A DNA stretch of 64,000 nucleotides from an uncultured Christensenellaceae bacterium (GCA_964391805.1 CAYMNK010000002.1:19671-83670), one strand, 5' to 3'; counted from the first letter of the stretch, positions 32,422 through 64,000 are shown. Made by a program: numbers and translations. The notes: generated by a model not told the origin, from the sequence alone.

Positions 32422-32494
32422 TGACTTTTGTAATATATTATTATACTTTTCGCAATTTTTTTTTGCTTTTTTTGTGCTTTTTTCGCAATATTAT

Positions 32495-34168: not shown

Positions 34169-34199
34169 ATTATCTCCGTATTTTGCCGTTTATTTTATA

Positions 34200-34228: not shown

Positions 34229-34264
34229 TCGACATACATTTAGTTAACATTAATTCGCCGATAA

Positions 34265-35020: not shown

Positions 35021-35023
35021 TGT

Positions 35024-35704: not shown

Positions 35705-36097
35705 TTATTCCTCATCCTCGTTTTCGGAAATGTCGTAATACACTACCTTGATGTCTTTACCGTCGTTAATCACTATGCCTGCGCGAAAGTCGTGGTCCTT
35801 GGGTGTCAGTCGCGTAGAACCGTCATCGATATCAAATTCAACAGTTATAGGCAAACCGTCTATATAATAACTTTTACTGCTTTCGTCATCTATCGAATCT
35901 CTTTCGGTTGCAAGTATTCCCGCAGCATCGGCGGAAGCTTGATCCAATTTTTGCGATTTCGAAACAAAAGTAAAGCCTTGTTGAAATAGTACAAGCATAG
36001 ATGAACACATTATACCGATTATCGCAATCGCTACCACGCATTCCAATAGGGTGAAGCCCCTCTTATTTCGTTTTAGTTTTTTAAAAAAGTTTTTCAT
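35705..36097 (-). CDS. Type IV minor pilin (130 aa)
   Basis: MKNFFKKLKRNKRG|FTLLECVVAIAIIGIMCSSMLVLF. GAGGTGA SD. Confidence 0.85.
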   Translation of the reverse strand: MKNFFKKLKRNKRGFTLLECVVAIAIIGIMCSSMLVLFQQGFTFVSKSQKLDQASADAAGILATERDSIDDESSKSYYIDGLPITVEFDIDDGSTRLTPKDHDFRAGIVINDGKDIKVVYYDISENEDEE

Positions 36098-36105
36098 AGT
36101 TCACC

Positions 36106-42954: not shown

Positions 42955-43004
42955 CAATTTCTCCTGCTTAATTATGGTTTATCTATCCAATAGCAACACT
43001 TTAA

Positions 43005-43868: not shown

Positions 43869-43878
43869 ATGCTCCTCC

Positions 43879-45027: not shown

Positions 45028-45030
45028 ATT

Positions 45031-45962: not shown

Positions 45963-47138
45963 TTATTCGATATTGAAGTTAAACATCGGTTGTACCACCG
46001 CTAATAACAGCATTCCTATAACTACCGCCATTACTACCATCATCAACGGATTGATAAGTGCGGTCAAACCCTTGATAGCCGAATCGGCTTCCTCGTCGAA
46101 ATAGTTGGCAACTCTATTGAGTACGTCTCCCAATACGCCCGACTCTTCGCCGACGAATAACATGCTCGTCAACAAAGGATCGAAACAGTCTACCGAAGAT
46201 ATCGCTTTACTCATCGTTTCGCCCTTTTTGATAAGGAAAACCGCTTCTTCCATTTGTTGGGATATGTAACTGTTTCCGACCGTCGCCGTTGCCATAGATA
46301 TGGCGTCTACTATCGATATACCGCCCTCATAAAGGGTTGCAAGCGTTCTCGCAAAAGTTGCAGTATATGTCTTGCGAACGAGTTTACCGATTTTTGGCAA
46401 CTTGATTTTAAGTCGGTCGAGCTCATACCTTATCTTGGGGATATTCTTGATAATCGGCAAGGTGAAATACAATATCACTATCACAAGCACCAAGATATAC
46501 CAGTAATTCAATATGAAGTTGGCTATATTTAGCAACAGTTGAGTCATAGCAGGAATCTCGGTCATACCGCTAACCATCTTAGGCAATACGAAAACGGCAA
46601 GCACAATGAATACTACAGCAGTAATCAAACCGAGTATTTTTGGGTAATTCATGGCACTCTTGACTTGATTCTTGAGTTTCATTTCCTTCTCGAACTGCTC
46701 GGACAGCTTACTGAGCGACTTATCGAGATCACCCGTTTGTTCACCTGCTTTGATCATATTGTACATGATGCTCGGAAACGCTCTACCTTGTTTGGATATT
46801 GCATCGGATAAAGAATTACCCTTTTGGACTAACTCCAACAGGTTCCCCGTAACATCCCGAAGATTGCCTTTTTCCATCTTGGAATACAGCATATCGAGGG
46901 CGTTCGCCAACGCTACACCTGCATGGATTATAGATGATAACTGCGAACAAAAATTGATAAGCTGTTTTAACGGCAACGGCTTATTACCCGAGGTTTGATC
47001 CTTTAGTCGGGTGTACGACAAACAGTAGTTACCGTTTTTGGTAACCAACTGTTTGATTTCCTCATCGCTTTGAGCAATCATCGTTCCCTTGATTGTCTTA
47101 CCCTCGGGGGTTAGTGCAACATACGAATATTTTTGCAT
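45963..47138 (-). CDS. pilC: Type IV pilus platform protein PilC (GspF family)
   Basis: Two GspF-type repeats (..FCSQLSSIIHAGVALANALDML.. and ..FARTLATLYEGGISIVDAISMA..) and three TM segments. Start set to ATG 47138 (MQKYSYVALTPEGK) with AAGGAG upstream. Confidence 0.92.
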   Translation of the reverse strand: MQKYSYVALTPEGKTIKGTMIAQSDEEIKQLVTKNGNYCLSYTRLKDQTSGNKPLPLKQLINFCSQLSSIIHAGVALANALDMLYSKMEKGNLRDVTGNLLELVQKGNSLSDAISKQGRAFPSIMYNMIKAGEQTGDLDKSLSKLSEQFEKEMKLKNQVKSAMNYPKILGLITAVVFIVLAVFVLPKMVSGMTEIPAMTQLLLNIANFILNYWYILVLVIVILYFTLPIIKNIPKIRYELDRLKIKLPKIGKLVRKTYTATFARTLATLYEGGISIVDAISMATATVGNSYISQQMEEAVFLIKKGETMSKAISSVDCFDPLLTSMLFVGEESGVLGDVLNRVANYFDEEADSAIKGLTALINPLMMVVMAVVIGMLLLAVVQPMFNFNIE

Positions 47139-47174: not shown

Positions 47175-47203
47175 ATTTTATTATATAATTATATATTTGT
47201 CAA
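47175..47203 (-). promoter_or_regulatory. Promoter TTGACA-17-TAAAAT upstream of pilC
   Basis: Minus strand: TTGACA (47203-47198), 17-nt spacer, TAAAAT (47180-47175). Lies in the 112-nt gap after the LRR giant. Confidence 0.6.
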
Positions 47204-47250: not shown

Positions 47251-50200
47251 TTAACCGACTTGTTCTACCGTGTATCCCGTAAATGCATCCGCTTCATAGG
47301 TCAGACGATTGCCGTCTACGGCATATAACGGTAATAGTATCTTTTCACCGTTATGACGGTTGTTATGATTCTCACATACGCTTGCCAACTGCTTGATTAC
47401 ATAGTTTTCTATAGAGAAGTGCGACCAATTCCAGTGAGGAATCAAAACTCCGCCTTCGTAACCACTCAACACGTTACTCATATCGGTTTCGTCGGTAGAA
47501 TAAGCTATCGGATAGTAAATCTTAGCACCGCTTGCGAAGACATTAGAGGATAGCTCTAAATTCTTATTCATAGAAATAAACTGCACCTCGCTAACGGTTG
47601 CGAATGATTGAGTGCGAATGGACGAGTAAACAGCAGAAACAATCAAGAAAGATATGCTTGTACCCTTGAATGCATTTTCGGATACAGTCAAATTTTTACC
47701 TCTAAGCGATAAAGACTTCAATCCGATACAGTTTTCAAAAGCACTTACGCCTATGTAACTAAGTGACGAAGCGGAACTAAAATCAACTGCATTATAGCCC
47801 GTGCAACTTCCTCTCAATTCGCATTCGTAGCGATGTAAACAGTTTGCACCGCCTTCGCAATCGACTAATCCCGTACATCCGGCAAAGGCATAATCGCCTA
47901 TGCTTTCGACATACGAACCAATCGTCACGTACTCGAGAGAGGTTACGTTATAAAATGCGTAAGACTCTATACCGATACAGTTAAAATCGGTTAGATATAG
48001 CGCATTGATAGTACTGTTCATAAACGCTCTCGTACCGATAATAACATATCCTTTGCCCTTTCCTAAGGTTTGATAATAGCCGTCAGATGTCTTATAAACA
48101 CCAATGGAAGATTGCTCGGAAACACTTATTTCGTTGCAGTACGATAAAATGTCGGCAGGATATGCGATTAATTTAGTTACATTATTATCTTGATTGACGA
48201 ACAATGCTCCGTTAAGCACAAAATACTTAGCGTTTGCCGAATCGACTTTAATATTTTTCAACTTCGGCGTATTCTCGATAGCGCCGAGCACGAAATCACC
48301 GTTTTCGAGTGTAATCGGAGCGGAAAAGTCTGTTAAGTCCTTACCTAATGAAAGTTTGGCTATCGATGTACCCGAGAATACGCCTGCTCCTATCTCGCAA
48401 ATACTTAACAACGTCACGTTATTCAAAGTAACGACATTGTCATATATGGCGGTATGTTTCAACGATTTATCGAAGGGAATATCCGTTTGAATGCTTCCCG
48501 ATAATACGCTGAGTCCGCGTGCGTAGGCGTATGCGCCGATATACTCTACATTGCTTGCTACAAATCCTATCTTAGTATTGGCAAAAGCGTAATCGCCCAC
48601 CGTCTTAATAGAATAGGACACAAAATCATTTCCGCTCACCGAGCTCAAATCGGTAGCATAGAAGGCGCCCTCTCCTACTTCACCAAGTCCACCGCTTATT
48701 TGGAAGTTTGAATTTGACGATCCTAAAAGGGTATTCTTTGCAAATGCATAACTATCAATTATCGCTCCGTCTGCAAATACTATATCGATATTTTGTAGTA
48801 CGCCGTCGTTGACTTTCAAAACTTCCTTGCCGTTCTCACCGCCGAATTCAACGTTTGCAAAGGCGTATGCGCCTATTCTCTTGACCGAACCGAGTTTAAG
48901 TGAGGTCAAAGCAACACCGGAGAAAGCATAATCGTCAATATAGTCTAAATCAATAGACGGAATACTTACGCTTGTTATCGAAGTACCTACAAATGCATAT
49001 TTGCCTATATATTCGAGGTTACTTTGATTTCTCGAACCGAATACAACATTAGTAAGTGAGGTCATTCCGTATAAAGCATTATCCTCGATATACCTTAACT
49101 GCGAATTGAACTCTATGGTTTTGATTTTGCTCGATACCTTAGTTGAAAATTCTTCGCCTACACCTATAACGGTTTGTCCGTCTATTTCATCGGGGAAGTA
49201 AACAGCCTCGGAACAATATTGACAGTTTTCATAGTCGTGAGAAGCACTCTTTTTCATTCCGACAATTTCGATACCGTTTTCAGTTACAACAAACTCGAAA
49301 CAGGTACTCGGAGTATAAAGGAATAGATTTTGCTCTTCTTCGGGATGCTCGACAATGTATTCGCTATCCTTGTAGCCTAATGCCTCGAGATATGCGATAA
49401 CCTTGGTTGCGTTGTATGGTACTTTTACCGTAATGTTATCGTGAAGCACAAATAATGGCGTTTCAGAGGTGTCGGGAAGCGACAAGACGTCGTCTTGGAA
49501 ATGCACGTACAACAACGAGTTACAGTTATCGAATGCGCCCTCGCCTATGGATTCGACGGAAGAAGGAATGCTGATTTCGGTTATTCCGTCACAATCGGCA
49601 AAGGCAAATGCTCCAATATTCTTAATCGAACCCGTAAATACTACTTCGCTTATATTCGAGTCTCTAAACGCTTCGCTTCCTATGGAAATCAATGCGTCAG
49701 AGGTAGGAATTGAACGGAGTGCTGTATTTTTGAAAGCACCGTTTGCAATTTCCGTTACGGTATTAGGAAGTTTAACGCTTACTAACGAATTACACGATGC
49801 AAAAACGTTCTCGGGAATAACCTCAATGTGCGTTTCGGATAAATCTACCGAAACGAGATTATAACAACCTTCGAATACGCCTATCGGTAAACTCGTTATC
49901 GTATCGAGAAGTTCTATTGTTTCGATTGCCGAGTTACCGCTGAATGCATCCTTGGATATCGAAGAAACTTGCTTACCCTCAAGATAGTATGGTATTACTA
50001 TTTGCCTTGAATTGAGCACATCGCTTAGTCCGATTATCTCGATTTTTCCGTTCTTTTCTCTATAAACCAAGTCACTTTTGACGGATACCTCTTTATATCC
50101 TATAGCAAAGTTGTTTAAGTTATCGATTAGTTGTGCACCTTGTGGCAAGTATACAAACGCTCCGTCTACAAAAACTCTCTTGTCGGAGTCGGTTGAGTAT

Positions 50201-53200
50201 ACGTCCGATTCGAAGTGAATAGTCTTGACATTACAGTTATCAAATGCACCCTCGCCTATCGATATAGACGAATTGGTCGATTCGTACGGTACGACAACGG
50301 TCCTAATGTCGGTAGAAACGCCGTAGAAAGCGTAGTTATCTATGCCCAAAACATTAATACCGTTAACGATTGACGGCAATATTACGATAGAATTATTCTT
50401 CAACTTCGATGTCGATAGGAAGGTATGCAACAGCACCTTTTCGTCTTTAACAGTATATAAAATACTGTTATCCTTATCGAATATCATATTGCCAAAACTA
50501 TATGAGAGAGTTCCGTCATCGTTCAATACGGCAATTTCAACAATGCTTGCACAGGATGCAAAGGCTTTATTGTCTATTTCGGCAAGTTTTTCGCTTCCGT
50601 ATACAGCAGTAAGCGCTGTGTCGCCTTCAAAGGCACCTGCACCTATACTTGTTACGTTATTGCCTAAATATAAAGCGCCTTCTGTACCGACAAGAGCGGT
50701 ATCGTAAGCAAATGCATAATCGGGAATATTTACTATACCGTCATGCATTATTACGTTTTTAAGATACCTATTGTATGCAAAAGCACCGTATCCGATCTGT
50801 TCGATATCGGTAGGTATTACAAACTCGGTTAATGTAGACGAAGTGGTATATAACACCAAAGTATTAAATCCGTCTACATTACCTACCAATGCGCTATAAG
50901 ACAATCCGTCAATCACTTCACCGATAACGCTAAATACCGAATTGGTGGAGTACATAGTACTCAATTCGTCATCGGGATCGTAGTCGATATTGGAAATGCT
51001 TGCTACATATACGCGTTCTATTTCGTTACCGTATAAGAATCCTTCACCTAAGGTGTATACATATCTTCCTAATGCAAATACTCTAATTCCCGCATTTGCG
51101 AAAGCGTTCGCGGATATTTCTCTTACCTCTTTGCCGTTTATGTATGTAGGAATTACCAATGTATCGTGATTATTGCATTCACAGTTATTGGACAATCCGG
51201 TAATAGTTATATATTCACCCTCTGTATAGGTAAAACATTCAACTGCGGTATGTTGTACGCAAATTACTCCGTTGACCGATACCGATGAAATATCCGTTCC
51301 GAAGGGTAGGCAATTGTAACCTTTGTCTAAACAATAATCATATACATTGCTACCTACCGGGCAATCGATTACGAGGTTTGTCAGCGAATAACATTCCAAC
51401 TCGGACGAGATTATAGAATACCTCGTCAATACAGAGGAATGTGCTCTATCTAAAGTGAAGGAATAGCCGTCATTCGATACGTAATCGCCCTCATTATCGA
51501 GAACAAACCTTGCCTTAGAGTACTTCGTTTTACCGCTCTCGGACAGCACATATTTGCCGTCCATTAACGAATAGATACCTTCGGAATTTTCGTAGAACCC
51601 ATTGAAGAATTTAACATATTCGCCGTCGAGTAATACGAAGTCACCGTCTTCGCTTATATACGCTTTGGGGAGTATTCCGTTAAAAATATCTTCTCCGTTG
51701 ATATCGATATCACCTTCGAAGTAGATATTAACCAACGAATCAGCACCCATAAATGCATCTCTACCTATTGTCTTTACGCTTTCGGGGATATATACGGTAA
51801 TAAGTTTACTGTATTCGAAAGCGTTGGACTCGATAGCTATCGTATTAGAAGGTACTTTATATAGCCTGTCATCACCCGATGGAATTAACCCTGCCGGATA
51901 GACTTTGAGTATTACTCTACCTGTGTATACACCGTCCGAACCTATTTCACGCTCGAATAATACTCCGTCATCCATATTAACGAAAGTGGTGTTTCTACTA
52001 CTTACATTAATAAGTTTAAGGTTGATCGTTCCCGAGAACACGCTCTTACCGAGGTTTTGGAGATTACCTCCTATTTGCACGCTTTCGAGATTCTTATTGT
52101 CCTTAAATGCGTAATCGCCGACCGACTCGATTCCGTCGGATATCAACACGGTGGTAAGTGCGCAGTTTGCAAATGAATAATCGCCTATAGAACGCACGTT
52201 GATACCGAATTGCACATAGGTTAATCCGTTTGATAGGTTCATTTCTTTACCGCCACTTACCGACAATACGCCCGATTTATAAACGATATATAAATTCTCG
52301 TATACTGCGGTGGTAACGATTTCGCCCTCTATTTCGTTACGAATACATGCAACAGTCTTGTCGTTGACGGTAATATTACCGCCGACAACCCTTATTTGTA
52401 ATCCGTCGACTATCAAATAAATGTTTTTATTTCTCTCTGTAGTGATGAGATATTCGTCGACTGCGCCATTCGAATCGTTTACGGTAACTATATTATCACC
52501 ATCCTTGATAGACACTATTTTATTCTCAATGTCGAACAATCCATTACAGCCGTTGAAAGCATAGTCATGTATAGCGGTAACCGCACTCGATAGCGTTATC
52601 TCGGTCAAATACTTACAATTTTCAAAAGCGTGTGCCGGTATTTCCTTCAATCCGATACCAAAGGAAACGGATATCAATCCGCTATCGGCAAAAGCATATT
52701 CGCCCAATTCCTTGACACTTTCGGTCAACGCGGTGGGCAATTCTCTTAACGCGGACGTTCCTTTAAATGCACTATTACCAATCTTAACGATTACGCCTTG
52801 AACTACTATTCCTTCGAGATTATCCGCACCCTCGAACAAACTGTCCGCGATTTCGGTAATGGACAAAGGAAGGGTTATAGAGGTAATCGCAGTTCCCATA
52901 AAGGCACCTTTACCTATGGTGGTTACACTTTCGGGAATGATTATTTCCTCTAACGATCCGCACGAGGCAAAAGCATATTCTCCAATAGTATGAACATTTT
53001 CGGGAATGGTAACGGTTACTAAACTGTCACAGCCCATAAATGCACCGTCGGAAATGGTGAATAGCAATTCGGGTAGATTGTTTATGCTCTTCAATCCGCT
53101 GTTACCGAATGCATTTGCTCCTATAGATTTGAGTGAATTCAATAAAGGCATTTCCTCGAGACTCTCGCATCCATAGAAGGTGCGTTCTTCTATGCTGTAT

Positions 53201-56200
53201 ATCGCACTATCGGGATCGATAATTATGTTTTTGATAAACAATGCGTTTTCAAAAGCGCCTATACCTATAGAGGTAAGTTGTTCACCTAAAACAAGCGTTG
53301 AAACATTACTGTTTTCATATCCGTACATCGCATAAGGTAAAATACTCGTCACTCCGTTAGGAATGGTCAAAGTATCTATCGAATTGGGATTGATTGCAGA
53401 CGAAAGTACAGCTACAAGTTCAATACCGTTATGTACTAACGCAGTATAAATAGGTTTACCGTTGCCCGAATTGTAGCTAACGAGCGAATATCCATAAGAA
53501 TTATTGATTTCGCCACTAAACGATTCGAGCGATTTCACTCCTGCAAAGGCACCGGATGCGATGTATTCTATAGAATTCGTAAGCTCAAAGGTTTTAGCGG
53601 TAGTCGTTGCAAGTACGGCATAAATGCTAATCGATTCGTCTAAGCCTTCGTCATAATTATTTGTGATATATTTAAGTCCGCTTACATTATTCAATTTAAA
53701 GTTATTATTAGCGCCTCTAAATATCACCTCATTTAATACGATGGTTCCGTCGGTAACGGTGTAGTCGGATTCGCTGAGTATGTCGTTTATAACTGCCTCG
53801 GACAGCACTTCTTTATCGATATCGGTAAATGTACCGACAAATACGTATTCACCGAAAGTGGTGAGATCTTCGGGCAAACTTACCGTCAATAGTTTATCTG
53901 CATGCGAAAATGCTCCGTCCCCTATAGCGGTTACCTTTTTACCGTCAATATATCTCGGCACTACAAGTTTAAGTGCGTTCTTTCCGCTGTCCGTTAATCC
54001 GCTTATCATTATTTCGTTACCGTTAACGGTTTCATAAGTGAAATAACTTATAGGCGAATAATATATAGTCGTTGATTTATTAGCCTTAACATATGCTTCG
54101 ATATTGGTTACGCCTAAGGGTGCATAGAAGGTAACAGAATCGCCCTTTCCATTAGCCATAAAGGCTTTACCCGATATAGAAATATCATTTTCGACATATA
54201 CGCTCAAGGTGTCGGACTTAACGGCAAATGCATTATTACCAACCGATGTAATACTTCTCTGTAAAACAACCTCTGTTATATATGTACCCGAGAAACTGTT
54301 ATCGGCTATATAACGTACAGATGACGGAATGGATATTGCGGTAATTTTCTTCTTGAGATTAACGCTGACCTTGGATAAGTCTATACCTACTATTTCCGCT
54401 CCGTCTACAAATCTCGGTATCAACAGTTCGGTATCGTTCAGCAACGCGTTTCCGTCGATTCCGCTCAATATTGCCTCGTTATCGCTTATCTTAGTTATAA
54501 CCATATTCTTAGCGTAATCTGTATTAATTACAGGTACCGATGTCTTTTGAATAAAGGCATCGAGGTTGTCGCTGTTTCCGTAAATAACTACATTGGCGTT
54601 ACTACCCTTAAATACGCCGTTACCTATGGTAAACGTGCGTGCGCTTTCTACATATACGCCGACGATAGATGTATCGTAAGCAAATACCGTATTGCCTAAC
54701 GTAATGGCTCCGTCTCCTAAGAAGATAACGGTTTCTAAATTACTGAGTTCGGCAAAGGCGTTATTACCGATACTTCTGACGCTTTCGGGAATTATTACCT
54801 TAGTTATCGAACGGATTCCGTAGAATACCGCAGAATCGATACAAACTACCTTAGCTTTAACCGCACTTCCGTCGCTGAGTTTAACAGTTAAATATTCGGG
54901 TATTATCAAGGTAGACTTGATCTTATCTTTATTAACTGCAATGATGGTCGCTTCATATACACCCGAAGAAGACATCGTTACTTCAACTATAAAGGCATCT
55001 TCGGATACGTATGCTCTAAACGGAATTCCGTGAAGTTTCGCATAACTTTCTACCAAACTATTCTCTATACCGTATACCGTGAACGAATCGTTGTAATCGG
55101 TAAATACCGTTACATCTCCGTCTTCGACATATCCTAATGAGGTAGGTTCGCTACGGAATATTACCTGAACAAGATCGCTCATTCCGTCAAATGCGCCCGC
55201 TTCCACCCTCTTTAATGTGGTCGGAAGTATTATCTTGGTAACCTTGACACTACTACTCGAAACATACCTAAATGCACCGCTCTTAATCGTGCTGATGCCT
55301 TCGGGCAATACTACTGTACCTAATTCGCCACCTTCTCCACCTAAACCATAGTATGCATAAAGGATAGATCCGTCCTTACTTAACAGCATGTTATCGGTCG
55401 AATCGTCTTCGAAACTTTGGTTATTGACAGATACCGATACGTTAATTGCATTGGTTATTGCACCGCTACTAACAGTGTAACTTCTATCCGAGAACATGTT
55501 ACCGTCAATAGTCATTACGTTATCGCCAATAGTTACATTCTTGATAACCTTACATCCGCTCAAAACATTTGCTCCAATATGCAATACGCTATTACCGAAA
55601 GTTATGGATTGCAATCTGCTTGCATCGAGGAAGGCTTCATCCGATACTTCGGTAATGTTACCGCTTATCGAAATAGATTGAATGGTCGTATTCGCGAAAC
55701 CTCTGTTTGCGATCTCTATAACCGGGTAACTTATTCCGTTAATATACGCATAATCGGGAAGTTTTACATCGGTGTTATAGGCAGTTTGTTTCCAAATACT
55801 GTCACTTACGTCTTTTATGCTTATGGTAGCACCCAAAGTTTTACCGAGATATACGTTTGAAATGGTATATAAATCGATCTTTTCGGTGAGTTCTTCGACT
55901 TCACCTTTGATGAGCGAATAATAAACTTTACCGTCGGACAATCTTTCGTATGCATATAAGCATTTTTGTGTACCCGACAAGATGTTGGCAAATCTACCGA
56001 TATATAATTCATCGGGTAATACGTTGCGCTTACCGCTTATCGACATACTGTCACTTACGGTGGCTTCCTTACCGAGTGCGTAAACTACGCCGTCAAAAAC
56101 TTCTACCGATACAAACTCGTTGTCGTCGCTAAGGTAATAATATTCGTTATTCAAGTACTTATCGTATGACAATAAATCTTGTTTTAGCGATACCAATGCG

Positions 56201-59200
56201 TTGTCAGATTTACGAATATAATATTCGAAACCGTCCGATTCTAACAATGTTACCTTTATACTCAAATAAATGTTGTTATTAACTTCAGCCTCGCTATTAC
56301 CTACAATTTGTTCAAAGCAAACGGCATCCTCGTTATAGCGGTAAGGTATGTTGTTGCGAACATATACGAATTCAACCGTCGAAGAATCTCCGTTACGATT
56401 AATTGCAAGATAACGTCTATATAAGTCCTTGCTGTCGACGGTGCTCAAATAATCGTTTCTATAGTATACCGCTCCATTGACGAGAGTTACCTCTATCAAG
56501 GTATTTCTATTGGCAACAGGATAGATTACATAGTATTCTTCCTCTATCTCGAAAATATCGTCGTCGAGATCGATTACATCGAAATTGCCGTCCTTATATT
56601 GGTAATAAGTACTTCCGCCGATAGTTTGATATACTCTATAATCAACCTTATTGAATATATCGTCATCCACTATACCAAAGTAACCGTTGGTTTCTGTCCA
56701 AGACGAAGTCTTCTCGGAATAGGTGTAATATACGCCGTTTAGCATATAAATTTGTCCGTCGGTGAGGTCATCCGCTCTCAGATCGAAATCGAAATAATCG
56801 ACAGGGATATATGCATACTTATTGACAAGTTCTCCGTCGTTGATGTTGCAATCGATGGGATAATATATCTCGACGTTCGCCAACAACGATGCATTCTTGA
56901 TTGTGATGCTTTCCGCGTTAATATACAACTTGGATAGACTATTCAATAAAATATATCCTTCGTCGTCGCAAAGTATCTTGGCATCGAGTTCGGTGATAGC
57001 CTTAGGTAATACCAATGTTTTGATATTATCACAGCCTATAAATGCACCCTTTGCTATATCGGTTGCCTTATCGGGCGCGAATGTCTCGCTATTGACGTCG
57101 TAGCACAACAGCAATACACCGTCACCGCTGTAAATCGCTCCGTCTTGAGCGATATATTGAATCTTACCGCTATTGAAGGAATTGTCAATTACTACATTGT
57201 TAAGGTTAGTACATCCTTCAAAGACGGTGTAAACCTCATAAACTTCGTTTAGGTTATCGTCCATAGAGGATACACCTATTACAGAGTTGCGCATTAGAGA
57301 CATTACTACCGTTGCCAATGAAGTGCACTTACTGAAGGCATATTCTCCTATACGCTGTACCTTGCCGAGGTTGGCGATAGATAGCGATGTACAGTTGCGG
57401 AATGCACCCTCGCCGATTATTATGCCGTAGCCCGATGCATAACTTGCGCCGTTTTCTATCGTGACGCTTCGAATTGTAGTATTGCCGGCAAAAGCTCTTT
57501 CCTCTATTTCGAGGACGGGAAGGCCGCCTATGGTTGCAGGAATAATTAGATCTTTATGATTGCCAACAGAGCAATTGGTGTGGGACTTTAATCCCGTAAT
57601 CTTGACGTAATCTCCGTAGGCAGTGCCTAAAACCACCTCATAATCGAAACATTCCTTATATTTATCGGCATCACTCAAGTTCTCGATGTAACTCGGCTTA
57701 GTGCTATAATTATTGCGGAAATAGGTTATCATCGCACTTGCGGAACTATGGATTTCCACAAAATCAATGGTACCTCTTATTCCGTCAAGCAAGCCTACAC
57801 CCAACTCGGTATCGGGATTACAGAAACGCAACTCGCTCAAACCGCTACATCCGCGGAACGCGTAATCACCTATGCTTTCAACATTATTACCGAGCATTAA
57901 CGAGCCTAACGAGTAACAATCTGCAAATGCGCTTTGTTCTATCGTTTTCAACGATTCGGGCAAATAAATATATGTTAGCGACGAGCAGTCTTCGAATGCG
58001 TGTTCGCCTATGCTCGTGACATAATTACCGAGTATCACAGTAGTAAGTGTGGTGTTACCCATAAAGGCAAGATCACCTATTCTTACTACGTTCTTACCGT
58101 CGATTCTATCAGGTATTCTTATCTTGGTATACTCATTGCCTTCGTCGTGCATACCGAGTATTTCTACTCCGCCTACCACATTAGCAGTAATAAATACCTT
58201 ACCAACCGTGATGGAAGTGACGTGAGCCTTAGATACAGCGTTTTGTGATTTGATATTATTGTAATCGCATGCGTAAACGGTTACGCCCGATGCGTTATCG
58301 TCAAATGCGCCGTCTTCGATAGTCGTACTATTGTTGGTGGAATTCAACAGATATACCGTTTTCAGTCTTTCACAGCCGGTAAAGGCATCCTTTGCAATAA
58401 CGAAGTTATCGGTATCGCCGTCGATTGATATGCTTATCAAATCGGTACCGCTGAACGCACCTTCCGATATTTCAACCACTTTTCTTCCGTTAATGGTAGA
58501 AGGAATGGTTATGTATTTATGAGATGTGTTGCAATGATGATTGACTAATCCTACGATAGCGACTTTATCGGTTCCGATAGCCTTGATCTCCAAGCAACCC
58601 CAATAGGTGCCCACATTGAAGGCAATACCCGCCTCGTCACAGTAAGTTTCGAGTTCGGTTGCGGAAATTCCATATACATTGAGTATATCGGTATCGCAAT
58701 CAAGGAATATATCTACACCTAAATCGGTGATCATACCCTCAATATATACCTGAGATAGGTTGCTACATCCGTAGAACGCTTGATCGCCTATACTTGTTAT
58801 AGATGACGGAATCGTGACGGTTTCAAGCGTCTTATTGCCCGAGAAGGCAAGATCGAGAATAGCCGTTACCGTCATTCCGTTAATGAATTCGGGAATGTCT
58901 ATCTTGGTTTCGTTTTCCGCATTCTTTAATCCCTTAATTCTGATTTCGTTGCCGTTAATAATTTCATAGTTAAACTTACTAACCGCAGAGAATCTCTTAT
59001 AGGTCAAAGGTATATTGTGATCGTTATATACATACGAATCGGCATATTCGCTGACTATATTGCTTTCGCCCTTTTCGAGAGGTGCGTAAATATAGATTTC
59101 TGCATTGTTTCCGAATATCGAGGCACCGATACCGCCACTTACAGAGTAATCGAGTCGACTTGGTGTGATATTAGATAAATATACAATATCGGATGCCGAT

Positions 59201-62200
59201 TGTAGTGTGTCACCCGTATATAATACCAACGAATAGTAATAGGAGCCGTCATCTAAACGACTATCTACACGTGCCGACTTATAGTCCATTCCGGTTAGAT
59301 TTTCTGTGGTATATGTGCCATTCGAATATACACTGTTTTTAGCGGAACCTAATAAAATTTCGCTATAATCATAGTTTGACGCATTCGAATCTGTTTCTAC
59401 AACATATCCTACAAGGTTACGCTCGTCTTGAGCTATATAGTTATCGCTATAAACGCTGTATGTGCATGTGTTGGTCGAATAATCGACTACAATTTTTGCT
59501 ACAGGCACCTGCAACACCCTCGTTTGTATTACTTCACCACCCAAATCGTCACTCACGGTAATGGGGTTGCCGTTACTATCAGTTCTCATTAGGTTGCGAT
59601 TCTCAAGAACGGTGTAGATTATGCTACCGCCGTTGAGATAGGTCAACTCGTTGGGTATATAACTTACCTTATATTCGTTCGAATTACTCGGCAATAAGGA
59701 CGATACAGTCTGCTCTATAATATCCCTATCGGATAAACCGTTTGCTATGCCGTTTTCGAAGTAAATAGACTTGAGCGGACAACCGTCGAATGCATACGAA
59801 CCGATATAGGTACAGTCTTCGGGAATATTGACATAGGTCAATTTTTCACAATTTGCGAAGGCGTATTCTCCTATACTCGTCACGTTATTAAGGTCTATTT
59901 CCTCGAGCACAGTGTTATACGCAAATGCATAGTTACCTATATGAGTTATATGGATAGGCATCATCTCATAGGTGCTATAATTCAATATCTCGTCGGGTAT
60001 CTTGAATGAGGTTACCGTATTGGTCGATAGGTAACTTATCAACGTATAGGTCGGTAATCCGTCTTTATCGTATATAGTATTACCGTCTGCATCAAGGTTA
60101 ACCTCGAGAATTGCTCCACCTGCGTATGCGTAATTCGGATCGTTATGATCTATGGTATAGATATAGAACTTATCCGAATATGAACCAACTTGAGCAAGAT
60201 TCGATATATTGATGAAGGAACCTTCCTCTATGGTGTGAATCATAGACTGCAATCTAAGTTGAGTAATTCCGCTACAACCTTCGAGTGCGAATGCTCTAAA
60301 AGTAGTAATTGCATTCAATGTACCGGTATCGTCCTTAGATTTATTACCGCTGAGTACTGAATATAAAGTACTGTCTATTATTGATCCGTTCTTAACGGTC
60401 AACAGTGAAGAATTATAGTAATATGATGCTACTCCGTCCTTTTCCTTGATGACTATGTCAAGAGATGTGTCGCTGAACGGATCGGTTATCGTGCTTGCAG
60501 GCACAGTATGTATTGCCGTCTTAATCGTTACCACTACGAAGTCTTCTTGATAGTTAAACGTAGCTTTATAGGAGTTCTTAACGTTATTTACATAGGTATT
60601 ATAAGTGAGTACGACTTCGCCTTTAATGTCGGGATTTAATTCGCTTAAGCCCGATACTAAGGTTATTGTTCCGCTCTTATCGTCATAAGAGAAGTACTTG
60701 TTGAATATATCTGCATTTTCAAACGATATCGTGCTTTGTTCTCCGTCGGCAGTATATTCAAGTTCGGCATTTTTAAATCCCGATATTACAAGTCTATCGG
60801 CAAACTGTATAGTTACACTGTTTTCCGACGTCGAACCCCAGTAATTCCACGTTATGAACTGGCTGTATACCTTATATGAATAATCGAAGGTGATTGTTTG
60901 GATGTATTCGCCAATATCCAAATTTCTTAGCGCTTCGGCATCGACGTAGAATGCATAGATATCACCAGATTTTTCTATCTTGGTTACGGTAATATTGGTG
61001 ATGCTCTTAGATTTATCTACAACCTCCGTTAAATTGAGTTTAATCGTTCCATCAATTATTGTACGTTCGCTTTCCCACTTAGACTTATCCGAATCGGTTT
61101 CGTCTTTTTCGGGGAAGGATGTTGAGCCGATGTAAACATATTCTTCATCGTTCTTTATTATCGTTTCGGGGAATAGTATGTTTTTATCGTTCGAATCGAA
61201 GGTAAAGGATGTTTGTCCCTCGGAATCATTTTCCTTAACCGGCAACATCGTTTCGATTTCGTAAAGTATTCCGTTAGAACCTACTACATAATTTTCGTTT
61301 TTACCGCTCAATACAAGGTTTGGACAATCGGCAAAAGCACCAAATCCCAATTCCACGATTCCGCTTATATCAAAGGTTTTAATGCCTGTATTTGCGAATA
61401 CCTTTTCACCGATGCGTAACAAAGGAAGTGATGTAATTGCATCGTTCTTTACCGACGGATATAGCGAATTGTAGAATGCTCTCTCGCCTAACTCATATAT
61501 CTCGGCAGGCATTCCGGAAATGGTTACCGTATCAAAATACATTATCTCGCTTAACGAAGTGGTATTTTCGAAGAAAGATGCAGGGATCGATCTAATATCC
61601 TTAGATAATCTTATGCTAACAAGATTAGAACAGTTTTTGAATAAGCCTTCCGCATCGTTAACATTGGTAACGGTATCGGGTAATACGAAACTTCTTAACG
61701 AATGACAAGATGCGAATGCATATTTGCCTACGCTCTTAACGTTAGGTAATACCACGCTTGTCAATGAAATACAGTTATAGAAAGCGTATTCCCCTATCGT
61801 TCTAACCGACGACGGAATAGTTACCGAAGTAAGGTTGGTACAATTCTCAAAGAATCTGTCGCCGATAGATGTTAAATAATCGGGCAATTTAACGCTCGTA
61901 ATTACGGTATTACCTTTGAGCAAATTGTCCGCCAATTGGGTAACCGGCTTACCGTCTATCGAACTTGGAATGATAATATTGGAATGATTACCGTTACATG
62001 TGTGATTCTTTAGACTTGTAATGATAATACTATTGCTGTCTATGTAGGTGACACCGTTCGAAGTGTATTTGACATATTCATATTCGAAGCAGTTAAAGCT
62101 TGTTCCGTTGTTATAAATGCTTTCATCGAAACAACTCTCTAAATATCCGCCCGAAGGACCGAATACGGCTATTCCGTAACCATCCTTATCGTAAGTGTTG

Positions 62201-64000
62201 GCGAATACATTACTGCCTAATAATGCTATCTCTCCAACGAAATATGCTTCATATAACGAAGTACAACCGTTGAACGCATTGTCACCTATTTCCTTTACCG
62301 TTTGAGGGAATACTATTCTCTCAAGGTTACGGATGTTCATAAACGCAGTCTTTTCTATGGTTGCGATTCCGTCTGGAATTATTATGCTTGTTGCGTTAAT
62401 ACCCGCAAACGCTTCTTGACCTATTACGGTAACACGACGGTCATTGATGTATTGAGGTATGATGACAACCATATTAGATTCGTCTTTATCTCCTACGGGT
62501 TGATTGTAAGCAACAATCTTAACGGTATCATCATCGAGATACTCGATAGTATACAAAGATGATACAATATTATTTTCCTTGAATGAATCGGAACTGAATA
62601 ATTCACCCGAATTGCTCGACAACAAATCGGTATATCTGCCATCGGCTTCCTCAAAGACTGCGTCGGTAAGATATTCGTTGATAAAGCTGAGATATAGATT
62701 GCTCAAATATTCTCCGTTCTTCTTGGGTCCAAATATTATCAAGTTGACACTTGCTCCGTCAAAGACGTGCTTTCCTATCTCGAGATCTTTATTAAAGGTT
62801 ATCGAGGTGAGGTTTGTTGCAGACTTAAACGCACCGTCATTTATCTTCAATACCGTCTTAGGTACTGTAAACGTTAAAGCAGAATTGCTCGATAAATAGG
62901 TGTGCAATACCGTTTGATTAATATTATACAAAGCACCGTTTTCAAACATGTAGTGCTCGTTCTTATCCAATACGATCTCGGTAAGATTACCGCAATCGGC
63001 AAAAGCACCTTCTCCGATGAAGGTAACGCTCGAAGGTATTTCAATTCTTACAATGCTGTCTAATCCGCTAAATGCATCCTTGGCAATTCCGGTAACATAT
63101 TTAATCTTTCCATTGGATGAAATAATCGTTGACGGAATGACAATATTGTTATGATTAACAGTGCAAGCGTGATTCTTGATACCGGTGATGATAAGTTCGT
63201 TACCGTTAACAGCACTCGTCTCGAAACAACAAGCATATTTTACATCTTCAACATTAAATCCTAAGTTGTCAAGTGTCTTATATAGAGGTAACGATTCTAC
63301 ATCCATTTCCTTAGAGATAGCATCAACATAAACTTCACAAGACGAGGTATCTACGCCTGTAAATACATCGGTGTAAATGCTGATGTCGTTGCCAAGGAAA
63401 TATATACTATCCAATTCTTGACATTGATAGAAAGCATTCTTGAATATCTTGGTAACATTTTCACCGATTACAACACTGCGTAGATTTTCAACGCCTAAGA
63501 AAGACGCTACGCCTAACGTCGTTACCGTACGCGGTATGTAAAGAGTTTGGATATCTTGATTGTATTGGAACGCTCTTTCGGCAATTACCGTTACCTTCAA
63601 ATTGTTAATAAACATTGGAATAACGACGTCTTTCATACCCGAAAGGCTGGCAATATTGTTCCAATTGACGATGCATATCGTACCGTCTTCCATATTGTCT
63701 GTGCTTGTAACGAAATAATTCAACGGAGTGGCTTGACGGAATTGAACATTGTTTTCTATACAGAACAATTCGAGTTCGTTACCGATATACAAACTGCTCA
63801 CTTGTAAATCTTCGTCGGTACCGATAAAAGCATCCCTACCAACAGTTGCAACTTCACCGAGTACTTGGACGTCATATAGATTCTCGCAATCTTTGAACGC
63901 TTTATCGCTTATAGTCTTGATACCACTACCGATAGTTACGCTTTGGAGATTCTTTGCACCCGCAAATGCCGAAGGCCATATAGAAATAACGCTATCAGGA
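47251..64000 (-). CDS. Giant BspA-type leucine-rich-repeat (LRR_5-like) protein, at least 5,581 aa; N-terminus beyond window end
   Basis: Hundreds of ~23-aa units such as IPSSVTSIGDQAFYGCSNLSQVYI. The track start at 63801 is an internal GTG. I translated 63802-64000 in frame: ..IPDSVISIWPSAFAGAKNLQSVTIGSGIKTISDKAFKDCENLYDVQVLGEVATVGRDAFIGTDEDLQV-SSLYIG.. has no stop and continues the LRR pattern. Confidence 0.9.
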   Translation of the reverse strand, partial: PDSVISIWPSAFAGAKNLQSVTIGSGIKTISDKAFKDCENLYDVQVLGEVATVGRDAFIGTDEDLQVSSLYIGNELELFCIENNVQFRQATPLNYFVTSTDNMEDGTICIVNWNNIASLSGMKDVVIPMFINNLKVTVIAERAFQYNQDIQTLYIPRTVTTLGVASFLGVENLRSVVIGENVTKIFKNAFYQCQELDSIYFLGNDISIYTDVFTGVDTSSCEVYVDAISKEMDVESLPLYKTLDNLGFNVEDVKYACCFETSAVNGNELIITGIKNHACTVNHNNIVIPSTIISSNGKIKYVTGIAKDAFSGLDSIVRIEIPSSVTFIGEGAFADCGNLTEIVLDKNEHYMFENGALYNINQTVLHTYLSSNSALTFTVPKTVLKINDGAFKSATNLTSITFNKDLEIGKHVFDGASVNLIIFGPKKNGEYLSNLYLSFINEYLTDAVFEEADGRYTDLLSSNSGELFSSDSFKENNIVSSLYTIEYLDDDTVKIVAYNQPVGDKDESNMVVIIPQYINDRRVTVIGQEAFAGINATSIIIPDGIATIEKTAFMNIRNLERIVFPQTVKEIGDNAFNGCTSLYEAYFVGEIALLGSNVFANTYDKDGYGIAVFGPSGGYLESCFDESIYNNGTSFNCFEYEYVKYTSNGVTYIDSNSIIITSLKNHTCNGNHSNIIIPSSIDGKPVTQLADNLLKGNTVITSVKLPDYLTSIGDRFFENCTNLTSVTIPSSVRTIGEYAFYNCISLTSVVLPNVKSVGKYAFASCHSLRSFVLPDTVTNVNDAEGLFKNCSNLVSIRLSKDIRSIPASFFENTTSLSEIMYFDTVTISGMPAEIYELGERAFYNSLYPSVKNDAITSLPLLRIGEKVFANTGIKTFDISGIVELGFGAFADCPNLVLSGKNENYVVGSNGILYEIETMLPVKENDSEGQTSFTFDSNDKNILFPETIIKNDEEYVYIGSTSFPEKDETDSDKSKWESERTIIDGTIKLNLTEVVDKSKSITNITVTKIEKSGDIYAFYVDAEALRNLDIGEYIQTITFDYSYKVYSQFITWNYWGSTSENSVTIQFADRLVISGFKNAELEYTADGEQSTISFENADIFNKYFSYDDKSGTITLVSGLSELNPDIKGEVVLTYNTYVNNVKNSYKATFNYQEDFVVVTIKTAIHTVPASTITDPFSDTSLDIVIKEKDGVASYYYNSSLLTVKNGSIIDSTLYSVLSGNKSKDDTGTLNAITTFRAFALEGCSGITQLRLQSMIHTIEEGSFINISNLAQVGSYSDKFYIYTIDHNDPNYAYAGGAILEVNLDADGNTIYDKDGLPTYTLISYLSTNTVTSFKIPDEILNYSTYEMMPIHITHIGNYAFAYNTVLEEIDLNNVTSIGEYAFANCEKLTYVNIPEDCTYIGSYAFDGCPLKSIYFENGIANGLSDRDIIEQTVSSLLPSNSNEYKVSYIPNELTYLNGGSIIYTVLENRNLMRTDSNGNPITVSDDLGGEVIQTRVLQVPVAKIVVDYSTNTCTYSVYSDNYIAQDERNLVGYVVETDSNASNYDYSEILLGSAKNSVYSNGTYTTENLTGMDYKSARVDSRLDDGSYYYSLVLYTGDTLQSASDIVYLSNITPSRLDYSVSGGIGASIFGNNAEIYIYAPLEKGESNIVSEYADSYVYNDHNIPLTYKRFSAVSKFNYEIINGNEIRIKGLKNAENETKIDIPEFINGMTVTAILDLAFSGNKTLETVTIPSSITSIGDQAFYGCSNLSQVYIEGMITDLGVDIFLDCDTDILNVYGISATELETYCDEAGIAFNVGTYWGCLEIKAIGTDKVAIVGLVNHHCNTSHKYITIPSTINGRKVVEISEGAFSGTDLISISIDGDTDNFVIAKDAFTGCERLKTVYLLNSTNNSTTIEDGAFDDNASGVTVYACDYNNIKSQNAVSKAHVTSITVGKVFITANVVGGVEILGMHDEGNEYTKIRIPDRIDGKNVVRIGDLAFMGNTTLTTVILGNYVTSIGEHAFEDCSSLTYIYLPESLKTIEQSAFADCYSLGSLMLGNNVESIGDYAFRGCSGLSELRFCNPDTELGVGLLDGIRGTIDFVEIHSSASAMITYFRNNYSTKPSYIENLSDADKYKECFDYEVVLGTAYGDYVKITGLKSHTNCSVGNHKDLIIPATIGGLPVLEIEERAFAGNTTIRSVTIENGASYASGYGIIIGEGAFRNCTSLSIANLGKVQRIGEYAFSKCTSLATVVMSLMRNSVIGVSSMDDNLNEVYEVYTVFEGCTNLNNVVIDNSFNSGKIQYIAQDGAIYSGDGVLLLCYDVNSETFAPDKATDIAKGAFIGCDNIKTLVLPKAITELDAKILCDDEGYILLNSLSKLYINAESITIKNASLLANVEIYYPIDCNINDGELVNKYAYIPVDYFDFDLRADDLTDGQIYMLNGVYYTYSEKTSSWTETNGYFGIVDDDIFNKVDYRVYQTIGGSTYYQYKDGNFDVIDLDDDIFEIEEEYYVIYPVANRNTLIEVTLVNGAVYYRNDYLSTVDSKDLYRRYLAINRNGDSSTVEFVYVRNNIPYRYNEDAVCFEQIVGNSEAEVNNNIYLSIKVTLLESDGFEYYIRKSDNALVSLKQDLLSYDKYLNNEYYYLSDDNEFVSVEVFDGVVYALGKEATVSDSMSISGKRNVLPDELYIGRFANILSGTQKCLYAYERLSDGKVYYSLIKGEVEELTEKIDLYTISNVYLGKTLGATISIKDVSDSIWKQTAYNTDVKLPDYAYINGISYPVIEIANRGFANTTIQSISISGNITEVSDEAFLDASRLQSITFGNSVLHIGANVLSGCKVIKNVTIGDNVMTIDGNMFSDRSYTVSSGAITNAINVSVSVNNQSFEDDSTDNMLLSKDGSILYAYYGLGGEGGELGTVVLPEGISTIKSGAFRYVSSSSVKVTKIILPTTLKRVEAGAFDGMSDLVQVIFRSEPTSLGYVEDGDVTVFTDYNDSFTVYGIENSLVESYAKLHGIPFRAYVSEDAFIVEVTMSSSGVYEATIIAVNKDKIKSTLIIPEYLTVKLSDGSAVKAKVVCIDSAVFYGIRSITKVIIPESVRSIGNNAFAELSNLETVIFLGDGAITLGNTVFAYDTSIVGVYVESARTFTIGNGVFKGSNANVVIYGNSDNLDAFIQKTSVPVINTDYAKNMVITKISDNEAILSGIDGNALLNDTELLIPRFVDGAEIVGIDLSKVSVNLKKKITAISIPSSVRYIADNSFSGTYITEVVLQRSITSVGNNAFAVKSDTLSVYVENDISISGKAFMANGKGDSVTFYAPLGVTNIEAYVKANKSTTIYYSPISYFTYETVNGNEIMISGLTDSGKNALKLVVPRYIDGKKVTAIGDGAFSHADKLLTVSLPEDLTTFGEYVFVGTFTDIDKEVLSEAVINDILSESDYTVTDGTIVLNEVIFRGANNNFKLNNVSGLKYITNNYDEGLDESISIYAVLATTTAKTFELTNSIEYIASGAFAGVKSLESFSGEINNSYGYSLVSYNSGNGKPIYTALVHNGIELVAVLSSAINPNSIDTLTIPNGVTSILPYAMYGYENSNVSTLVLGEQLTSIGIGAFENALFIKNIIIDPDSAIYSIEERTFYGCESLEEMPLLNSLKSIGANAFGNSGLKSINNLPELLFTISDGAFMGCDSLVTVTIPENVHTIGEYAFASCGSLEEIIIPESVTTIGKGAFMGTAITSITLPLSITEIADSLFEGADNLEGIVVQGVIVKIGNSAFKGTSALRELPTALTESVKELGEYAFADSGLISVSFGIGLKEIPAHAFENCKYLTEITLSSAVTAIHDYAFNGCNGLFDIENKIVSIKDGDNIVTVNDSNGAVDEYLITTERNKNIYLIVDGLQIRVVGGNITVNDKTVACIRNEIEGEIVTTAVYENLYIVYKSGVLSVSGGKEMNLSNGLTYVQFGINVRSIGDYSFANCALTTVLISDGIESVGDYAFKDNKNLESVQIGGNLQNLGKSVFSGTINLKLINVSSRNTTFVNMDDGVLFEREIGSDGVYTGRVILKVYPAGLIPSGDDRLYKVPSNTIAIESNAFEYSKLITVYIPESVKTIGRDAFMGADSLVNIYFEGDIDINGEDIFNGILPKAYISEDGDFVLLDGEYVKFFNGFYENSEGIYSLMDGKYVLSESGKTKYSKARFVLDNEGDYVSNDGYSFTLDRAHSSVLTRYSIISSELECYSLTNLVIDCPVGSNVYDYCLDKGYNCLPFGTDISSVSVNGVICVQHTAVECFTYTEGEYITITGLSNNCECNNHDTLVIPTYINGKEVREISANAFANAGIRVFALGRYVYTLGEGFLYGNEIERVYVASISNIDYDPDDELSTMYSTNSVFSVIGEVIDGLSYSALVGNVDGFNTLVLYTTSSTLTEFVIPTDIEQIGYGAFAYNRYLKNVIMHDGIVNIPDYAFAYDTALVGTEGALYLGNNVTSIGAGAFEGDTALTAVYGSEKLAEIDNKAFASCASIVEIAVLNDDGTLSYSFGNMIFDKDNSILYTVKDEKVLLHTFLSTSKLKNNSIVILPSIVNGINVLGIDNYAFYGVSTDIRTVVVPYESTNSSISIGEGAFDNCNVKTIHFESDVYSTDSDKRVFVDGAFVYLPQGAQLIDNLNNFAIGYKEVSVKSDLVYREKNGKIEIIGLSDVLNSRQIVIPYYLEGKQVSSISKDAFSGNSAIETIELLDTITSLPIGVFEGCYNLVSVDLSETHIEVIPENVFASCNSLVSVKLPNTVTEIANGAFKNTALRSIPTSDALISIGSEAFRDSNISEVVFTGSIKNIGAFAFADCDGITEISIPSSVESIGEGAFDNCNSLLYVHFQDDVLSLPDTSETPLFVLHDNITVKVPYNATKVIAYLEALGYKDSEYIVEHPEEEQNLFLYTPSTCFEFVVTENGIEIVGMKKSASHDYENCQYCSEAVYFPDEIDGQTVIGVGEEFSTKVSSKIKTIEFNSQLRYIEDNALYGMTSLTNVVFGSRNQSNLEYIGKYAFVGTSITSVSIPSIDLDYIDDYAFSGVALTSLKLGSVKRIGAYAFANVEFGGENGKEVLKVNDGVLQNIDIVFADGAIIDSYAFAKNTLLGSSNSNFQISGGLGEVGEGAFYATDLSSVSGNDFVSYSIKTVGDYAFANTKIGFVASNVEYIGAYAYARGLSVLSGSIQTDIPFDKSLKHTAIYDNVVTLNNVTLLSICEIGAGVFSGTSIAKLSLGKDLTDFSAPITLENGDFVLGAIENTPKLKNIKVDSANAKYFVLNGALFVNQDNNVTKLIAYPADILSYCNEISVSEQSSIGVYKTSDGYYQTLGKGKGYVIIGTRAFMNSTINALYLTDFNCIGIESYAFYNVTSLEYVTIGSYVESIGDYAFAGCTGLVDCEGGANCLHRYECELRGSCTGYNAVDFSSASSLSYIGVSAFENCIGLKSLSLRGKNLTVSENAFKGTSISFLIVSAVYSSIRTQSFATVSEVQFISMNKNLELSSNVFASGAKIYYPIAYSTDETDMSNVLSGYEGGVLIPHWNWSHFSIENYVIKQLASVCENHNNRHNGEKILLPLYAVDGNRLTYEADAFTGYTVEQVG

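Follow-up and report, generated by a model that had tools for sequence, protein, structure and literature searches.

A giant leucine-rich-repeat (LRR) gene runs off the end of the stretch of DNA analysed here (the window, 64,000 nucleotides), raising the question of where this gene begins, how long its product is and by which route that product would leave the cell. The host is an uncultured gut or rumen member of the Christensenellaceae-like Clostridia, and the features of the locus are collected in Table 1.

Table 1. Coordinates of the giant gene, its features at the window edge and the neighbouring pilus genes.
Feature	Position	Strand	Assignment and evidence
66 codons at the window edge	63802..63999	-	Internal coding, truncated BspA-type LRR_5 unit; no stop, LRR_5 match, seven orthologs
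GTG codon	63799..63801	-	Internal invariant valine; no Shine-Dalgarno, eight-sequence alignment
Giant LRR gene, part in the window	47251..64000	-	C-terminal 5,582 codons plus TAA 47253-47251; translation
Candidate promoter TTGACA-17-TAAAAT	47175..47203	-	11/12 consensus match only; gap between the giant's stop and pilC
pilC (T2SSF platform protein)	45963..47138	-	First pilus-cluster gene after the giant; Pfam T2SSF 185.9 bits
Rest of the pilus cluster	30779..45951	-	Pfam PilM_2, N_methyl (three times), Peptidase_A24, T2SSE

Minus-strand translation revealed that the frame ending at the TAA stop stays open through 63999, so that the portion of the giant gene in the window is its C-terminal part. 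As a preliminary description of this DNA had claimed, minus-strand bases 63801-63799 read GTG and none of the 66 codons upstream of them is a stop. The leading 'I' of the peptide given there is not readable from the window because only one base of that codon, 64000, is present. Stop codons made up 8-9% of the codons in non-coding frames across the giant gene, and in two such frames on the same strand stop-free windows of 66 codons were rare (9 of 5,518 and 10 of 5,517, ~0.2%). Neither an ATG, GTG or TTG within the 66 codons nor a Shine-Dalgarno-like sequence 5' of the GTG (upstream bases GGTACCGACGAAGATTTACAA) was found. Taken alone, the 66 residues matched Pfam PF13306 (LRR_5, BspA type) at 41.1 bits (E = 2e-10) against a cut-off of 27.7 bits, which bears out their earlier reading as a BspA-type LRR; the match begins at profile position 43, and the domain is therefore cut by the window edge. 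Together with the residues that follow, they gave gap-free alignments with seven orthologs (52-86% identity), and the GTG-encoded valine was invariant in all eight aligned sequences, within the motif LQVSS / LLVTS of a conserved LRR strand. The GTG is an internal valine codon and not a start, and 63802-63999 belongs to the gene's ordinary internal coding sequence rather than to a 5' leader. The description had named an in-frame stop in 63802-64000 as the observation that would overturn its reading; seven independently assembled orthologs, open and conserved there, argue against such a stop.

That the true N-terminus lies beyond the window and that the protein exceeds 5,581 residues, both claimed at the outset, proved correct, with the frame open to the edge and close relatives open for >3,000 further codons upstream. 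A Logan contig (SRR10277277_46800, L001) with 100% identity to window 35031-55951 carries an automatic gene call of 10,074 residues that ends at window 47251, the same stop. In this call the giant's start at Logan record position 318 is equivalent to window ~77475, and 4,492 residues lie outside the window. Orthologs complete inside long contigs have 10,153, 10,162 and 9,964 residues, and the C-terminal ~3,300 residues of these three align end-to-end to the window protein at 62%, 46% and 39% identity. A relative with a shorter upstream LRR gene, one that would begin within a 10-kb flank, was sought among those examined, all of which encode ~10,000 residues. The window cuts the giant gene roughly in half, the whole gene encoding ~10,074 residues and starting ~13.5 kb beyond the end. 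For annotation, the GTG at 63801 is not to be called as a start, and only 55% of this ~30-kb gene lies within the window. An exact 60-mer of the window end gave no match in the genome contig library, nor did a codon-degenerate pattern in metagenome contigs.

An open reading frame of 30 kb could in principle be an artefact, created either when several shorter LRR genes were wrongly assembled into one or by a pseudogene in decay whose frame is open by chance. Genes for repeat proteins collapse easily during assembly and several assemblies of the species are interrupted a few hundred bases 5' of the giant gene, but the assembly appears sound because 47251-64000 (16.7 kb) contains no nucleotide-level repeats. 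Moreover, the giant has 9,964-10,162 residues and aligns collinearly in assemblies made independently from different samples and species, and seven loci (L007-L013) hold 21-22 kb of the giant's frame without a stop, set against the stop frequency of the non-coding frames. We regard an artefact as extremely improbable.

Diverged leucine-rich-repeat modules of the BspA type (LRR_5) make up nearly the whole giant. The portion in the window contains 26 LRR_5 stretches, its two halves score 554.8 and 730.5 bits against PF13306, and the protein modules are 30-40% identical to each other. Their matches among solved structures, 4fs7 (E = 1.4e-40), 4gt6 (7.8e-35), 4h09 (1.3e-28) and 6mlx (TpLRR; 6.1e-25), as well as PcpA 4cp6, are surface or LRR proteins. 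A profile search of the inspected parts of the giant and its orthologs, which in the focal protein lie beyond the ~3,000 N-terminal residues, detected only LRR families. No TM-like segment occurs in the 5,582 residues in the window (maximum 19-residue hydropathy 1.55). The C-terminus (...LTYEADAFTGYTVEQVG*) has no LPXTG, C-terminal TM or hydrophobic stretch, placing the giant outside the sortase-anchored (LPXTG) class.

The preliminary description had also placed the export signal outside the window, and such a signal was recovered in one ortholog only, L015, which is ~47% identical to the focal giant. In L015 an in-frame TAA at 6605-6607 closes the giant's frame, and the first start codon after it, ATG 6656, is preceded by AAAGGAG, a strong Shine-Dalgarno sequence. 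The N-terminus that follows (MSRRHLNVLLICLICLTVVFTVVYLSAC) consists of MSRRH, a 19-residue hydrophobic stretch and the lipobox L-S-A-C28. In this ortholog it thus agrees with the lipoprotein pattern, in which a lipobox [LVI][ASTVI][GAS]C follows a positively charged n-region and a hydrophobic h-region. Residue 4,537 of L015 aligns to the first residue in the window, compared with 4,492 residues predicted to be missing from the focal protein, and the N-terminal segment upstream of the L008-equivalent point measures 1,438 residues in L015 and 1,446 in the focal protein. By orthology, export of the giant is most likely through Sec and signal peptidase II, with a lipid anchor.

Two other routes were weighed. 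In the first, the neighbouring type IV pilus machine would handle the giant as a substrate or include it as a component; it would be a giant modular pilin whose prepilin-type (class III) signal is cut by the cluster's prepilin peptidase before the protein is presented on the pilus. Streptococcus sanguinis has modular pilins that bear bulky C-terminal domains, the giant gene lies directly upstream of pilC-pilM in all relatives examined, and the pilus cluster includes a prepilin peptidase and three N_methyl pilins. However, the L015 N-terminus is a classical lipoprotein signal, and G|(F/M)-T-L-x-E or N_methyl is absent from it, from the sequence in the window and from any inspected part of the giant, whereas the N_methyl motif is present in the three small neighbouring pilins. 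In addition, none of 150 other LRR_5 giants, the best of 77,502 matches, has a prepilin motif at its N-terminus; most of these start with a Sec or lipoprotein signal or a signal anchor. The prepilin-type signal, one of the options listed in the preliminary description, was rejected on the L015 N-terminus and this base rate, and we consider a pilin role very unlikely. The second route is Sec export in which the focal species would use, in place of a lipid anchor, either a type I signal that is cleaved off or an N-terminal signal anchor that is retained. Those 150 giants have Sec type I signals and signal anchors at roughly the same frequency as lipoboxes, and the identity to L015, on which the argument is based, is limited; nevertheless, the L015 lipobox is canonical and the N-terminal regions of the focal gene call and of L015 differ in length by no more than about 10 residues, making this route a minor possibility beside the lipid anchor.

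Analysis of the region downstream of the giant revealed a Gram-positive-type type IV pilus operon. After pilC come pilM, two membrane proteins without assignment, a 2,282-residue protein, two N_methyl pilins, the prepilin peptidase, the PilB ATPase and a third pilin. The gap between the giant's stop and pilC is 112 nt and contains no terminator-like site; the promoter-like site within it hints that the giant and the pilus operon may be transcribed separately. In all relatives examined, which are rumen and gut MAGs labelled Christensenellaceae or Clostridia, pilC-pilM directly follows a complete giant ortholog. This fixed linkage is the only unusual aspect of an otherwise recognisable adhesin-like protein, and the synteny does not prove a functional link between giant and pilus.

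On the other side of the gene, assemblies of the species break repeatedly just upstream of the giant's start, and a 35-nt inverted repeat flanks ~290 nt upstream of the ortholog gene. The contig breaks were suspected to be caused by a tRNA or Rfam element, but neither was found 5' of the ortholog gene. Under a bolder reading that we think unlikely (see below), the inverted repeat and the breaks could point to a phase-variable giant.

Comparison with known systems places the giant among LRR_5 proteins. It has the same ~23-residue repeat as the BspA-type LRR proteins (Tannerella forsythia BspA, Treponema pallidum TpLRR 6mlx, and 4fs7, 4gt6 and 4h09 from Bacteroides/Firmicutes) and would share with them a surface location and an adhesin-type role. 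In contrast to these proteins, the giant is roughly 5-25 times longer, with dozens of diverged LRR modules, and lacks a C-terminal sorting domain, its ortholog having an N-terminal lipobox. Gut and environmental bacteria encode other giant LRR_5 proteins (2,000-7,983 residues in the representative protein library), which are abundant there (77,502 representatives at E <= 1e-30), belong to the same architecture class and mostly have Sec or lipoprotein N-termini. None of these is an ortholog, with 22-27% identity to the focal giant, whose family is larger (~10,000 residues) and lies beside a type IV pilus operon. Staphylococcus aureus Ebh is likewise a protein of ~10,000 residues with repetitive extracellular modules, and a fibre-like role as a surface adhesin is presumed for both; Ebh, however, is formed of helical bundles and has a C-terminal membrane anchor, whereas the giant is an LRR solenoid with a predicted N-terminal lipid anchor. 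Giant proteins of Omnitrophota have >30,000 residues, many TM regions and SecA-like domains and are encoded downstream of a type II secretion or type IV pilus-like locus; LRRs were also noted in giants of Clostridia (West-Roberts et al., bioRxiv 10.1101/2023.11.21.568195). The Omnitrophota loci and ours both combine a very large gene implicated in adhesion with GspE/GspF-type machinery and small class III signal proteins, but the focal giant precedes its locus and belongs to another phylum. Compared with the Omnitrophota type (>30,000 residues, numerous TM segments and a SecA-like DEAD helicase), it has ~10,074 residues and no TM segment in 5,582.

At ~10,000 residues, the giant is longer than every one of the 150 top-ranking LRR_5 proteins matched in the representative library, the longest of which has 7,983. 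In the three relatives with complete orthologs, PilC identities were 85%, 72% and 67%, compared with 62%, 46% and 39% for the giant, which diverges in sequence much faster than neighbouring PilC while its size is conserved (9,964-10,162 residues). Such conserved size with fast divergence is typical of surface proteins under diversifying pressure. A protein homologue search with the first 1,000 residues in the window and with the ortholog alignment further upstream returned only paralog-level matches of ~25% identity, none longer than 1,750 residues, apart from a single ortholog fragment of 779 residues (P0001). The representative protein library yielded no self-match and no ortholog. Neither of the two protein libraries searched contains the giant family, which surveys at the protein level could therefore overlook. 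Our literature search found nothing specific on a Christensenellaceae LRR giant or its linkage to a pilus.

We propose, as the probable joint model, an LRR giant of ~10,074 residues that is exported as a lipoprotein, tethered by its N-terminus, adhesin-like and encoded upstream of the type IV pilus operon. The model builds on the open frame, LRR identity, total length, orthology and synteny observed here, and family knowledge would add the adhesin role and the cooperation with the pilus. As the ortholog suggests, the giant would be made with an N-terminal lipoprotein signal peptide and exported by Sec, after which the lipobox cysteine would be lipidated and signal peptidase II would remove the signal peptide. 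The mature giant would be held by its N-terminus at the outer face of the cytoplasmic membrane, without a C-terminal anchor, and its thousands of LRR solenoid residues could project as a very long binding fibre. Such a fibre may be an adhesin that binds the surfaces of the host, of plant particles or of partner cells, probably acting with the pilus operon in attachment while not itself a pilin.

A bolder reading, which we think unlikely, is that the ~10,000-residue LRR lipoprotein and the type IV pilus form one conserved attachment apparatus of uncultured rumen and gut Christensenellaceae, in which the pilus cluster has a large protein (~2,000-3,000 residues) of its own. If true, pilus and giant fibre would work together in catching partner cells (methanogens or protozoa, for instance) or particles, and the giant might depend on the pilus system to pass through the cell wall. 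In sum, the fixed position of the giant beside the type IV pilus operon provides a testable hypothesis on how uncultured rumen Christensenellaceae may attach to their partners or substrates.

The 66 codons flagged upstream of a GTG near the end of the window belong to a recognisable surface protein that the window edge truncates, the giant encoded by an LRR_5 gene on the minus strand. From its TAA stop codon, the frame of the giant is open through position 63999, giving 5,582 codons in the window, and the flagged stretch contained neither a stop codon nor an ATG, GTG or TTG. Since only ~0.2% of 66-codon windows were stop-free in the other two, non-coding frames of this strand, this open run is not a chance event. 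The flagged residues alone scored 41.1 bits against LRR_5 (PF13306), compared to the Pfam gathering score of 27.7 bits, and the match began at profile position 43, indicating that the window edge truncates the domain. The stretch aligned ungapped to seven orthologous loci at 52–86% identity, with the valine of the GTG both invariant and internal, and no Shine-Dalgarno-like sequence was found upstream of this codon. These results bear out the preliminary description, which had rejected the GTG as the start and had read the codons above it as stop-free BspA-type LRR sequence. The peptide that it gave stands for the residues from the 66 codons; its leading "I" does not, because the window includes only a single base of its codon.

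The full length of the giant came from a public Logan contig, SRR10277277_46800 (45,408 bp), reached through an exact search with the neighbouring PilM-like protein. The fetched part of this contig was 100% identical to window positions 35031–55951, and the giant was called on it as a 10,074-residue product with the same end base as in the window, in agreement with the earlier claim that the N-terminus lies outside the window and that the protein exceeds 5,581 residues. By arithmetic, the called start at record position 318 corresponds to window position ~77475, placing 4,492 residues (13.5 kb) beyond the window; the contig holds 317 nt upstream of this start. Exact and degenerate patterns of the window-end DNA had no match in the two contig collections searched.

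The in-window part of the giant is almost entirely of BspA type, with 26 LRR_5 stretches in Pfam and LRR_5 scores of 554.8 and 730.5 bits for its two halves, and it matched by sequence the solved LRR_5 structures 4fs7, 4gt6, 4h09, TpLRR 6mlx and PcpA 4cp6. Neither a TM-like segment over the 5,582 in-window residues nor an LPXTG motif or membrane anchor at the C-terminus was found. That such a repetitive ORF is an assembly or pseudogene artefact is barely credible: its protein modules are 30–40% identical to each other, and no DNA-level internal repeats were found in its in-window part, which argues against assembly collapse.

Comparison with related loci, identified via PilC homologs, revealed a similarly sized gene directly upstream of pilC-pilM in every relative examined. 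These giants comprised 10,153 residues in L002 (goat-rumen MAG GCA_017444385.1; PilC identity 72%), 10,162 in L003 (an ENA scaffold; 85%), 9,558, cut by the contig end, in L004 (an ENA/NCBI contig; 85%), and 9,964 and 9,565 in the Logan contigs L005 (67%) and L006 (56%), respectively. By their coordinates, the first three complete giants (10,153, 10,162 and 9,964 residues) lie well inside their contigs. The C-terminal ~3,300 residues aligned collinearly and end to end with the window protein, at 62% identity for L003 and L004, 46% for L002, 39% for L005 and ~33% for L006, and by these alignments all five are true orthologs. The giant thus diverges far faster than PilC (62/46/39/~33% versus 85/72/67/56%). 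Despite this divergence, total length was kept at 9,964–10,162 residues. A protein-seeded scan of GTDB genomes added seven loci (L007–L013), which carry the labels uncultured Christensenellaceae or Clostridia and originate from rumen, cecum and gut; each has up to 22 kb of the giant's frame without a stop. L008 was 86% identical to the window protein across 4,272 ungapped residues, and beyond the point that matches the window edge its frame runs on for another 3,046 residues in the upstream direction.

A complete N-terminus was found in L015 (Ga0256405_10000803), a 47%-identical ortholog recovered by scanning a metagenome collection with an alignment of five orthologs over their upstream-most 1,000 residues. 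Here the frame is closed upstream by a TAA, and the first start codon after it is an ATG, which a 6-nt spacer separates from an upstream AAAGGAG. The region upstream of the gene also contains a TTGACT-17-TAAAAT site and terminator hairpins. The product starts MSRRHLNVLLICLICLTVVFTVVYLSAC-KKN; its n-region is basic, the hydrophobic core spans 19 residues and the lipobox, L-S-A-C, is canonical, which makes this a lipoprotein (signal peptidase II) signal. The first in-window residue aligns to L015 residue 4,537, compared to 4,492 focal residues predicted to be missing, and up to the L008-equivalent point, L015 has 1,438 N-terminal residues and the focal protein 1,446. Given this agreement, the start called for the focal gene on the Logan contig very probably marks the N-terminus seen in L015, and we infer the focal lipobox by orthology. 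At the N-terminus, most of 150 unrelated LRR_5 giants have a Sec signal, a lipoprotein signal or a signal anchor, so a Sec type I signal or signal anchor in place of the focal lipobox has precedent, although we consider it unlikely. None of the 150 had a prepilin motif at the N-terminus, nor did L015, and the proposal that the giant is itself a giant pilin, despite its place beside a pilus operon, is very improbable.

In the region of L015 upstream of the giant, no tRNA or Rfam family was found. About 580 nt before the ATG, the intergenic DNA contains a 35-nt inverted repeat, 94% complementary, whose arms enclose 292 nt. Several independent assemblies of the focal species and L008 end only ~140–320 nt upstream of the predicted start, and these ends may reflect an invertible or repeated element at that place.

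Features of the giant, its neighbourhood and the L015 start region
Feature	Positions (strand)	Description
Giant, in-window part	47251–64000 (−)	TAA stop 47253–47251; 5′ part beyond window end
Flagged codons	63802–63999 (−)	66 codons
GTG	63801–63799 (−)	internal valine codon
pilC, pilM		pilus genes 1–2
Two membrane proteins		pilus genes 3–4; no assignment (PilN/O-like)
2,282-residue protein	36106–42957 (−)	pilus gene 5; hydrophobic N-terminal segment
Two N_methyl pilins		pilus genes 6–7
Prepilin peptidase, PilB ATPase, third pilin		pilus genes 8–10
2,251-residue ORF	30698–23943 (−)	follows pilus cluster
739-residue predicted secreted protein	4686–6905 (−)	N-terminal signal, C-terminal hydrophobic tail
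L015 upstream TAA	6605–6607 (L015)	closes frame of giant
L015 ATG	6656 (L015)	first start codon after TAA
L015 inverted repeat	5718–6079 (L015)	intergenic

The giant is followed by a complete Gram-positive-type type IV pilus cluster. The 112-nt gap between the giant and pilC contains a promoter-like site and no terminator-like site; the genes scanned yielded no secretin. The 2,282-residue protein, encoded between the PilN/O-like genes and the small pilins, has an N-terminus, KKGAALTYTMIFLMVLSVIVVSF, resembling a PilX/pseudopilin-type anchor; it had no Pfam N_methyl or PilX match, only a sub-threshold Bactofilin-like repeat, and relatives carry a gene of 1,894–2,967 residues at its position. 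This protein could be a giant pilus-associated tip protein. In the 2,251-residue ORF, MFRSKLCLLILVFTVVALSLSGVFLSAEA is a Sec-type signal peptide, the C-terminus carries a TM anchor and a basic tail, and the match to MBG_2 was weak; one 40-kb island thus contains three proteins of >2,000 residues. The remaining window is ordinary bacterial chromosome of ~40% G+C, including ffh, rimM, trmD, rplS, ylqF and rnhB; judging by its motifs, the 739-residue protein may carry an extracellular nuclease-like domain and, after it, Ig-like repeats.

Giant LRR_5 proteins are very common, with 77,502 in the representative library at E <= 1e-30, many of 4,000–8,000 residues and the longest 7,983 among the matches listed. 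LRR-bearing giants in Clostridia, and giant genes near type II secretion-like loci in Omnitrophota, have been noted previously (bioRxiv 10.1101/2023.11.21.568195). The focal family is a larger, new addition to these proteins, and our literature search found no paper describing it. Three features are unusual: its size is fixed near 10,000 residues, it invariably precedes a type IV pilus operon, and it is missing from the protein libraries searched. The ~10,000-residue orthologs were absent from both libraries, and a word-indexed protein search gave nothing >1,750 residues among the matches listed; gene calls were present in the contig index, suggesting that very long proteins are invisible to these searches.

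Beyond the observed frame, family, length, orthology and synteny, the best-supported reading is that Sec exports the giant, a lipid anchors it at the N-terminus and the LRR solenoid modules project as an extremely long fibre; what is known of BspA-type proteins points to a role as an adhesin. The giant is genetically linked to the type IV pilus, which probably serves the same attachment function. More speculatively, and doubtful at present, giant and pilus may together form a conserved, possibly phase-variable attachment apparatus.
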